From positions 8 to 64,007 of the IMG/VR virus record IMGVR_UViG_3300007513_000031: 64,000 nucleotides of DNA; one strand, given 5' to 3'. Below, piece after piece: positions 5,977 to 7,749 of the stretch. A program made the position numbers and the translations under genes. The DNA is from a virus. Lineage: Duplodnaviria; Caudoviricetes. The stretch's first letter is position 1; every line of letters begins with the position of its first letter. The notes beneath the pieces are model-generated. The model ran no database searches, was not told the origin of the DNA, and saw only the letters and a program-made list of their open reading frames with translations.

Positions 5977-6552
5977 ATGCATCACACATTTCATCATATT
6001 CCAAAAACAGGTGGTAGCACAATAAGAATAAGACTTGAAGATCGTGCAGATAAAAAACAAATTAGTAAATTGAATTATGCTATTGGACATAATACCACTC
6101 ACAGAACTCCAGGAATACATTTTACTTGGTTACGTAATCCTTTAGACAGAGATATATCACAGTTCAATTATGATATGTCAAAAGGAGAAGCAGAGGCAGA
6201 CACATTTGAAAAACATTGTCAACTATTATCTGGTAATTTTATTACTTTATGGTTGCACAAGAATTATCTTTTACAAGATCCTAATGTAGATATAAATTCA
6301 AAATATATAAATGTGCAACAATGTTTAAAAAATAATTTTCAAAAAGTTTTTTCTACAGAAAGTATTGAACAAAGCTGGAATGAAATTGCTAACTTTTTGA
6401 AAATTGATAGAGAACCAAGACTAAACACAAACAGAAGTCATAGTGATTACAAAAAATACAGTGACAAAAAAAATTTAAGTAAAGAATTCCTTGAATGGCA
6501 CAGGAATTATAACCACTATGATTATAAACTTTTTGAAGAGTTTTGTACGTAG
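5977..6552 (+). CDS. Sulfotransferase family protein
   Basis: 5'-PSB motif HIPKTGGST and 3'-PB motif LRNPLDR.IS. Confidence 0.75.
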   Translation: MHHTFHHIPKTGGSTIRIRLEDRADKKQISKLNYAIGHNTTHRTPGIHFTWLRNPLDRDISQFNYDMSKGEAEADTFEKHCQLLSGNFITLWLHKNYLLQDPNVDINSKYINVQQCLKNNFQKVFSTESIEQSWNEIANFLKIDREPRLNTNRSHSDYKKYSDKKNLSKEFLEWHRNYNHYDYKLFEEFCT

Positions 6553-7122: not shown

Positions 7123-7217
7123 TATAAAAACCATTAAAAGGTCGATTAGTTTAGGATATTCGAAATTGACCTTTTTTATGGGTGTTTTATAAATCCTATA
7201 CAACAATAAATACACAT

Positions 7218-7307
7218 AGTTCAAACGTGCTTTGACACAAAGTCAAAGACTTATGCGGATAACCACCGCGTAGCCAGGAGAACTGGCATTGGACTCCTAA
7301 AAAGGAG
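7218..7307 (+). promoter_or_regulatory. Structured 5' leader RNA (four-way junction plus anti-SD hairpin)
   Basis: P1 7218-24/7289-95, P2 7230-36/7242-48, P3 7252-58/7266-72, P4 7273-77/7283-87; ctcct/aggag sequesters the SD; starts 5 nt after TAAATA. Confidence 0.6.
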
Positions 7308-7314
7308 AAAACAA

Positions 7315-7749
7315 ATGGGAAGACCTATCAAAAAAAGTAAAATGGCCAACACTTCAAGTGGCGCGGCAGGTAATATAGCTGTAACAGCTTATAGACCGTA
7401 CGGTGGAGCAAAAGTTGATTCTACTACGGCTTATATAATATCACAAAGAGGATCTAAACTATTCAAGATTTCGTTAGAAGATTCTTCTAATGCTGTGTAC
7501 CAATTGAAAGCAGTTGCACCAGGATCACTAGCTAATGATAACACTAGCTCATATGGTGAGTTCTGTGTACAGGTTATATTAAATGACTCAACAGTTGCAT
7601 ACGTTGAACGATTTTATAACAACACAATTCATTATGTGACTGCGGCAGGTGCGGCAGGTACTTGCACATATACATTAGGTGATGAAGGTACTGATGAAGG
7701 ACAAGCAGGATCAGGTGCTGGTTCCATTGACGTTATTACTGCACAGTAA
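7315..7749 (+). CDS. Putative abundant virion structural protein (possibly head decoration)
   Basis: Strong SD, own late promoter and terminator, beta-rich composition; function inferred only. Confidence 0.5.
   Translation: MGRPIKKSKMANTSSGAAGNIAVTAYRPYGGAKVDSTTAYIISQRGSKLFKISLEDSSNAVYQLKAVAPGSLANDNTSSYGEFCVQVILNDSTVAYVERFYNNTIHYVTAAGAAGTCTYTLGDEGTDEGQAGSGAGSIDVITAQ

Follow-up and report, generated by a model that had tools for sequence, protein, structure and literature searches.

A freshwater-2 leader RNA with a predicted four-way junction ahead of a putative late gene in an uncultured T4-like giant phage

In the capsid region of an uncultured T4-like phage, the DNA just ahead of a gene whose product begins MGRPIKK is predicted to fold, as RNA, into a compact structure that extends to the ribosome-binding site, which raises the question of what this leader is and what it does for the gene that follows. 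Based on the sequence alone, it had been described as an unannotated cis-regulatory RNA (a switch or a protein-binding operator) that controls a structural gene or, alternatively, as a processed small RNA. The DNA analyzed here, referred to as the window, is a stretch of 64,000 nucleotides from an IMG/VR virus record (CheckV, 17% complete). It carries T4-like genes for the portal, prohead protease, a scaffold-like protein and a Gp23-type capsid protein (PF07068, 7.5e-98), as well as for the tail sheath and tube, head closure, a T4-type terminase, a gp32-like SSB, UvsX and UvsY. Three larger related records (G001−G003) are 114−185 kb in length and 32−51% complete, and the CheckV figures imply genomes of ~360 kb. 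The genome that harbors the leader is taken to be that of an uncultured marine T4-like giant myophage; the runs that contain part of the window are labelled seawater or marine, with shares of at most 0.29, and four of them were aligned with it. Possible auxiliary genes are seen at 5977−6552, 40673−42241, 35114−36154 and 56960−58678, i.e., a sulfotransferase-like, two radical-SAM-like and an asparagine-synthase-like ORF, respectively; the sulfotransferase-like ORF is located between the capsid gene and the leader. The gene and the element that precedes its leader are:

7315 to 7749, plus strand: MGRP-start gene, encoding a protein of 144 residues that begins MGRPIKK and is predicted to be all-beta, 3' of the portal, protease, scaffold and capsid genes.
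7206 to 7212, plus strand: ATAAATA, a T4-type late-promoter-like element, of which TAAATA is conserved in relatives; the putative promoter function is suggested by T4 biology.

Late transcription units of the T4 type have a TATAAATA-like −10 element about 6 nt ahead of the start and lack a −35 element. By the T4 spacing rule, the +1 of the leader would be found at ~7218, i.e., at the first base of the closing stem described below. The sequence AATAAATA at 7205−7212 fits 7 of the 8 positions of a TATAAATA-like late −10 element, and TAAATA is invariant in all 18 aligned leaders (those of 17 loci found by the protein, see below, and that of the window). It is also present in 94 of 94 leaders of the larger class defined below, where the rows were trimmed to begin at TAAATA. 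In the window, ATAAATA is depleted, with 14 sites compared to 39.8 expected, and 13 of the 14 are on the plus strand; most of these sites are found just 5' of ORF starts, as expected of a promoter word that is in use. A small ORF upstream of the leader (7013−7123, 36 aa with a hydrophobic core) has its own ATAAATA (6986−6992) and a GGAG, and 3' of this ORF, at 7136−7175, a 12-bp hairpin followed by a U run resembles a terminator, which would insulate the leader promoter from read-through.

All helices that had been proposed from the sequence alone are present in the leader at the positions given for them. They are composed of the following elements:

7218 to 7224 with 7289 to 7295, plus strand: closing stem P0, AGTTCAA with TTGGACT, which begins at the predicted 5' end of the transcript; pair probabilities 0.12−0.73.
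7230 to 7236 with 7242 to 7248, plus strand: hairpin P1, CUUUGAC/GUCAAAG, as a whole 7227 to 7250, found in the MFE fold and equivalent to P1 of the Rfam model.
7252 to 7258 with 7266 to 7272, plus strand: hairpin P2, UAUGCGG/CCGCGUA with the loop AUAACCA, found in the MFE fold and in the Rfam match, strongly conserved in sequence.
7273 to 7277 with 7283 to 7287, plus strand: hairpin P3, GCCAG/CUGGC with the loop GAGAA, found in the MFE fold and in the Rfam match.
7294 to 7298 with 7303 to 7307, plus strand: SD hairpin, in which the anti-SD CUCCU and the SD AGGAG enclose the loop AAAA; pair probabilities 0.5−0.99.

The pairing that had been suggested between CTCCT at 7294−7298 and the SD AGGAG at 7303−7307 is thus available, with two bases (7294−7295) common to the closing stem, and the SD is located eight bases ahead of the ATG at 7315. 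In the MFE fold of 7207−7317, the three hairpins are accompanied by the closing stem, with 6 bp formed, and by the SD hairpin, with 4 bp; P1 is lengthened by GU at 7227−7228, paired with AC at 7249−7250. The energy of this fold is −33.4 kcal/mol, compared to −16.15 ± 3.46 kcal/mol in 200 dinucleotide shuffles (z −4.99), none of which was as good; the opposite strand folds less well (−30.5 kcal/mol, z −3.79). Because of the better fold on the plus strand and an invariant U-G pair in P2, the structure is placed on the sense RNA. The description of the leader as markedly richer in GC than its flanks holds with respect to the upstream intergenic DNA (0.41−0.46 vs 0.25−0.30), but not with respect to the downstream coding sequence (0.34−0.44). 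The start codon is itself found in a small predicted hairpin, AUGGG/CCUAU, formed with codons 4−5 (7315−7328; pair probabilities 0.79−0.98), the GG/CC part of which is invariant in relatives and may simply reflect the Gly and Pro codons.

A search of Rfam using cmscan identified this RNA as RF02980, freshwater-2, a family of the Rfam type Cis-reg. The match at 7231−7317 on the plus strand has a score of 80.6 bits (gathering score 49.9; E 4.3e-12) and covers model positions 1−84 of 84 without truncation. The model spans P1, P2, P3, an A-rich spacer, the SD and the AUG; the match ends at 7317, on the last base of the start codon. What had been regarded as an unannotated RNA, from the three hairpins to the SD and AUG, therefore belongs to a described family, and a match of this kind had been named beforehand as one that would remove the novelty, which it does for the core. 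The leader is almost certainly a member of RF02980 that acts in cis. RF02980 is also the sole family above cut-off in a scan of the 64-kb window and of the 64,007-base virus record. In the search that identified the leader, snoRNA and CRISPR-DR rows at 18−19 bits fell below their own cut-offs and were rejected as chance matches. The Rfam consensus is in upper case at positions of the P2 stem and of the P3 loop; the P3 loop reads UAGAAC in the family consensus and GAGAAC in the window. One freshwater-2 copy is found in each of the four large records, i.e., the record of the window and the three larger ones. We take freshwater-2 to originate from the 224-motif screen of Weinberg et al. 2017 and, presumably, to be a family of aquatic metagenomic sequence. 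The word "freshwater" is absent from the main text of PMC5737381, the presumed source paper. No paper that names a freshwater-2 motif, a freshwater-2 RNA or RF02980 was found in the literature searched; the supplements of the presumed source paper may already give the gene context.

Relatives of the leader were obtained either by means of the protein or by means of the RNA. Seventeen viral contigs were located by the MGRP protein alone, and 16 of these 17 loci carry the motif above cut-off, ending at the ATG. Scans for patterns of the P2 core yielded at least 120 and at least 118 stretches in viral contigs and at least 118 in metagenomes; the patterns fixed most P2 bases, and one scan also fixed three bases of the 3' strand of P0, so that invariance at these positions is partly a matter of selection. 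Among the matches listed, 209 of 215 core-bearing sources have TAAATA at most 60 nt upstream and an MGRP-type start at most 80 nt downstream. The motif is, i.e., linked exclusively to the MGRP gene family, behind a late-promoter-like element, which together with the Cis-reg type in Rfam bears out the earlier view of a cis-acting leader of a late, probably virion-associated, gene. The 160 unique leaders among the matches listed fall into two classes. In 94 of them an extra insert is found between P3 and the SD, as in the window, while in the 66 short leaders P3 runs almost straight into the SD; the insert comprises roughly a dozen nucleotides, includes the 3' strand of P0 and is absent from the short leaders. 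Both classes share one gene order: the leader is preceded on its own strand by the genes for portal, protease, scaffold and capsid, and a fibre-like gene comes after it. Among the matches listed, the capsid gene was seen in 69 of 93 loci of the insert class and in 53 of 66 of the short class, many of these loci being truncated.

The fold of the sense strand is conserved in these relatives. In a MAFFT alignment of the 94 insert-class leaders (among the matches listed, as are all figures for this alignment), P3 pairs in 100% of cells and all four of its pairs covary on both sides. P2 also pairs in 100% of cells, with exchanges at one pair (CG in 69, GC in 22 and GU in 3 leaders); the remaining P2 positions were fixed by the scan patterns, yet they are invariant also in the 18 aligned leaders, i.e., the 17 found by the protein and that of the window. 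In P1, where 68.5% of cells are paired and which is misaligned by MAFFT, six of nine pairs show double changes. For the entire structure, 86.6% of cells pair, compared to 76.8% in shuffles and at most 45.9% when the strands were slid. RNAalifold, when applied to the MAFFT alignment, recovered P2 and P3 plus two pairs inside the coding start, and did not recover P0, the SD hairpin or even the accepted P1. In the 18 leaders, the P2 stem and the P3 loop hardly vary, while the identity of the proteins falls to 50%. In an alignment of 100 proteins MGRP identity falls to 16−25%, and conservation of the RNA core by far exceeds that of the protein.

Sequence conservation continues unbroken from the leader into the coding sequence, across the SD and the AUG up to the first codons, which is relevant for the suggestion of a stable small RNA acting in trans, be it a product of leader processing or a tRNA-like molecule. 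As a compact four-way junction of tRNA size that begins where the transcript does, the RNA would suit such a role, but this unbroken conservation argues against it, as does the observation that the motif always adjoins the same gene among the matches listed. The lack of a tRNA T/D-loop consensus had been noted from the sequence alone, and ARAGORN found 0 genes in the 64-kb window. Among four RNA-library runs, near-identical contigs span 7282−7592 in one run and relatives span 7207−7344 in three; one of these contigs extends upstream through the promoter, and the contigs are uninformative on the start, on the RNA ends and on processing. The idea of a processed small RNA thus finds no support in the RNA-library contigs, which are silent on RNA ends, and a trans-acting small RNA is highly improbable.

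The closing stem was analyzed separately from the core. In the 94 insert-class leaders among the matches listed, P0 alone pairs in 86.3% of cells, compared to 84.5% in shuffles (0 of 500 as high) and at most 48.8% with slid partners. P0 cells that are changed on both sides number 20, compared to 10.0 ± 2.6 in shuffles, 1 of 500 being as high; these double changes (AU to GC in 16 rows, UA to CG in 3 and CG to AU in 1) amount to few events, and neither the count of pairs with a double change nor that of pair types exceeds the shuffles. An enclosing helix of at least 4 bp is found in the MFE fold of 86 of 94 insert-class leaders vs 15 of 66 short leaders among the matches listed. In a set collected without constraint on P0 (142 unique long-spacer leaders among the matches listed), 114 have an enclosing helix, compared to 56.2 ± 5.1, with a maximum of 68 in 20 rounds, when the first 10 nt of the same leaders were shuffled. 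Variant P0 helices still pair, as in GUCUAAU/GUUGGAC, GUCCGAU/AUUGGAC and GUCAGAU/AUCGGAC (the last with one A-G mismatch), and in the variant AGUCAA/UUGGCU one base is lost on both strands. Tests in which the P0 partners were swapped are weak at the narrow level (1017 of 20000 swaps as good) and at the class level (9001 of 20000 and 3009 of 50000), while a wide swap at the level of haplotypes, which are not independent, is clear (0 of 20000). On a tree of 100 MGRP proteins, which is poorly resolved, the insert label requires 13 changes (starred branches force at least 9), compared to 33 for shuffled labels; the window belongs to a starred set in which 41 rows are of the insert class and 3 are short.

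These data can be read in the sense that only the Rfam core, P1−P3, is functional, such that the closing stem and the anti-SD would be by-products of a spacer that is conserved in one phage group. The thin covariation of P0, the failure of RNAalifold to call either helix and the 66 of 160 leaders without them (among the matches listed) are consistent with such an interpretation, as is the identity of the P0 strands in most rows, which implies that the high pairing percentage is largely inherited. However, differing sequence classes, including one with CAGAGCY/GGCUCUG, each retain a helix that encloses P1−P3, the pairing is far above that of the slid and 5'-shuffled controls, and the 13 changes of the insert label on the poorly resolved protein tree argue against a single inherited accident. 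We therefore consider a core-only function quite unlikely. Because 66 of the 160 leaders among the matches listed lack both the 3' strand of P0 and the anti-SD, and three rows have P0 and lack the anti-SD, these elements are not essential to the family. In our reading of the alignments, P0 appears to be a real helix of the insert class, modular and located outside the family core, and together the closing stem and the SD hairpin are probably functional in this lineage, a view that we hold with some reservation.

Covariation of the anti-SD with its partner cannot arise because the SD is invariant. Among the 94 insert-class relatives, again among the matches listed, the SD hairpin is pairable in 93% of cells, and C-to-U changes of the anti-SD that keep a G-U pair (in 23 and 17 rows) exceed breaks (3 rows each); the three broken rows are those that retain P0 and lack the anti-SD. 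In MFE folds, at least 3 nt of the SD are paired in 66 of 94 insert-class leaders compared to 9 of 66 short leaders (among the matches listed). A helix CAGAGCY/GGCUCUG, which is displaced and replaces P0 in L001, L003, L004, L017, L100 and L129, uses the would-be anti-SD bases, and the MFE fold of these leaders has a free SD. In the window, the isolated SD hairpin has an energy of −4.8 kcal/mol; opening the SD is predicted to cost 3.0−3.7 kcal/mol in the ensemble, and P0 then reaches its full 7 bp. A search for a RegB-type nuclease (PF10715), which would be a reason to hide GGAG, gave no match in four fragmentary records, in which a control was also without a match.

Because P0 and the SD hairpin abut and share 1−2 bp, they are seen as one stacked unit rather than as a toggle. 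The earlier proposal of a two-state switch is not borne out: the two helices are adjacent, and the only alternative fold that was tried is ~9 kcal/mol worse. A second AGGAGAA, in the P3 loop at 7276−7282, has the same letters as the context of the true SD; a decoy fold in which it takes the anti-SD was rejected, with −24.5 kcal/mol when forced compared to −33.4 kcal/mol. A riboswitch, in which the core would bind a small molecule and the SD hairpin would be the expression platform, would account for a conserved multi-stem structure directly 5' of the SD and for the SD-sequestering hairpin of the insert class. Yet the motif is tied only to a late gene in the head/tail-fibre module, with no metabolic link, the short class is without the SD-hiding hairpin (SD paired in the above-mentioned 9 of 66 MFE folds among the matches listed), and no competing fold of similar energy was found with the one alternative tried, all of which makes a riboswitch very unlikely.

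The short leaders may cover the start site differently. In several of them (L020, L042, L054 and others), the P2 loop is rich in CCCA or CCCG, which are complementary to AUGGG at the start. At least four contiguous complementary bases between the P2 loop and the start codon are found in 48 of 66 short leaders compared to 9 of 94 insert-class leaders among the matches listed. For the window, this pairing was rejected: only CCA/UGG (3 nt) can pair, as is the case for 85 of the 94 insert-class leaders (among the matches listed), where at most 3 nt can do so. This difference between the two classes points to more than one means of covering the start site, but it may reflect few evolutionary events.

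The product of the gene that follows the leader has no match to a Pfam or PHROG family; 1051 homologues were found at E ≤ 0.001, none of which is informatively named. Its structure model (pLDDT 86.5, pTM 0.81) is all-beta and is composed of a basic N-terminal tail, modelled at lower confidence, and two small beta-barrels. The barrels display a weak likeness to KOW/Tudor/SH3-type domains (best Z 4.5, VIA-align), which may reflect only a common arrangement. In the PDB, no sequence match better than E 0.045 and no Foldseek match to the model at E ≤ 0.001 were obtained, and no score of 0.9 or more was found in the ESM Atlas; matches in BFVD are all to uncharacterised proteins, the best being from Agrobacterium phage Atu_ph07 (E 2.5e-06). 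Among GenBank phages, neither the leader nor the gene of the window has a DNA or protein match, the leader giving chance-level short matches only. A distant homologue is found in the cultured Sinorhizobium phage Phosso (469 kb; 32% identity over 101 residues, E 2e-5). This homologue also starts with MGRP and is found behind ATAAATA and a short plain leader (L216, 3960−4010), and freshwater-2 is absent from the whole 469 kb of Phosso, which weighs against the scheme outlined below. The MGRP start is therefore a feature of the protein and not merely part of the RNA.

From this comparison of RNA and protein, it is possible to outline how the leader may work. Transcription would start, probably, ~6 nt past ATAAATA, at ~7218, and the nascent RNA would fold at once, such that P0 joins the extreme 5' end to 7289−7295 and encloses P1−P3 in a four-way junction, with a 5-bp hairpin that includes the SD AGGAG stacked directly on P0. 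Such a leader would provide gene-specific control, in cis, of the amount of MGRP protein: the paired 5' end may protect the message, and the SD hairpin would present a modest barrier to initiation, ~3 kcal/mol. Because the P2 stem and the P3 loop are near-invariant while the protein drifts to 16−25% identity, we propose that they are most likely a docking site for a protein, the MGRP product itself being the prime candidate. If bound, this protein may hold the folded, SD-hidden state, which would result in autogenous feedback. Taken as a whole, i.e., the 5' leader of a late mRNA with a junction fold, an SD throttle and docking of a protein at P2/P3 that feeds back on MGRP, this scheme strikes us as evenly balanced between right and wrong. 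The link of the motif to a single gene family speaks for the operator idea, as do the basic tail and the weakly KOW/Tudor/SH3-like barrels of the protein; a protein operator or feedback loop is nevertheless held only tentatively, as a possibility on the doubtful side.

The same structure could be a purely intrinsic leader, i.e., a 5' stabiliser and a fixed setter of the translation rate that operates without a partner in trans and without regulation. The first paired base is the seventh nucleotide past TAAATA in 44 of 85 insert-class leaders that have an enclosing helix (among the matches listed), and for most leaders of this class (among the matches listed) the predicted +1 or +2 is where the 5'-terminal helix starts; a weak SD hairpin (~3 kcal/mol) is more of a throttle than a switch, and a partner in trans is a candidate only. 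A stabiliser requires a shape rather than a sequence, yet near-invariance is seen in the P2 stem and the P3 loop of the 18 aligned leaders, and we therefore regard a leader of this simple kind as somewhat unlikely. With respect to the docking of a protein at P2/P3, a more specific version would make freshwater-2 an autoregulatory operator of a capsid-region protein, in which free MGRP protein binds P2/P3 of its own leader and stops its own translation, while lineages swap the cover of the start site; this cover would be the SD hairpin stacked on the junction in the class of the window, and pairing of the P2 loop with the start codon in the short class. In this specific form the idea is unlikely.

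Freshwater-2 is one of many "orphan" Rfam motifs to which no organism or function is attached. It is now linked to a T4-type late promoter, as predicted from the conserved element, and to a single conserved gene that follows the capsid block of uncultured phages of ~360 kb, and a large subclass would close into a four-way junction that hides the ribosome site. The motif itself is catalogued, while its four-way-junction variant is uncatalogued. Beyond the Rfam model, the present data place the motif in phages and behind a late-promoter-like element, connect it with the MGRP gene and describe the subclass with the four-way junction and the SD hairpin, which is a modest step. With this incremental gain, the motif offers a means of testing how late genes of giant phages are controlled at the level of translation.

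A comparison with known systems places the leader among several types of RNA. It resembles a tRNA in forming a four-way junction of ~78 nt, but neither the signatures of a D or T loop nor an acceptor 3' end is present, and its 3' strand runs directly into the SD. The leader of E. coli ompA is a 5'-terminal stem-loop that stabilises the mRNA. The likeness is a helix that begins at or beside the first transcribed base; in freshwater-2, however, this helix closes a four-way junction with sequence-conserved arms, and a stabilising effect here is suggested by analogy. The autogenous translational operators of phage T4 (gene 32, gene 43 and the targets of regA) and the leaders of bacterial ribosomal-protein genes are structured leaders found at the ribosome-binding site of one gene. 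The freshwater-2 leader has in common with these a structure at the ribosome-binding site, conservation beyond what pairing requires and a link to one gene family, but it displays no likeness to them in sequence or structure, and its binding protein is a candidate only; membership is not claimed. What the leader shares with the Rfam description of freshwater-2, finally, is a set of three hairpins alike in their conserved sequence, followed by the A-rich spacer, AAGGAGAA as the SD and the AUG. The Rfam model begins at P1, the stretch that follows P3 is modelled as unpaired, and the closing stem is absent from the model, whereas in the window and in 94 of the 160 unique relatives among the matches listed, this post-P3 stretch pairs with a 5' strand located where the transcript is predicted to begin, which closes a four-way junction, and the SD is paired with a run of pyrimidines.
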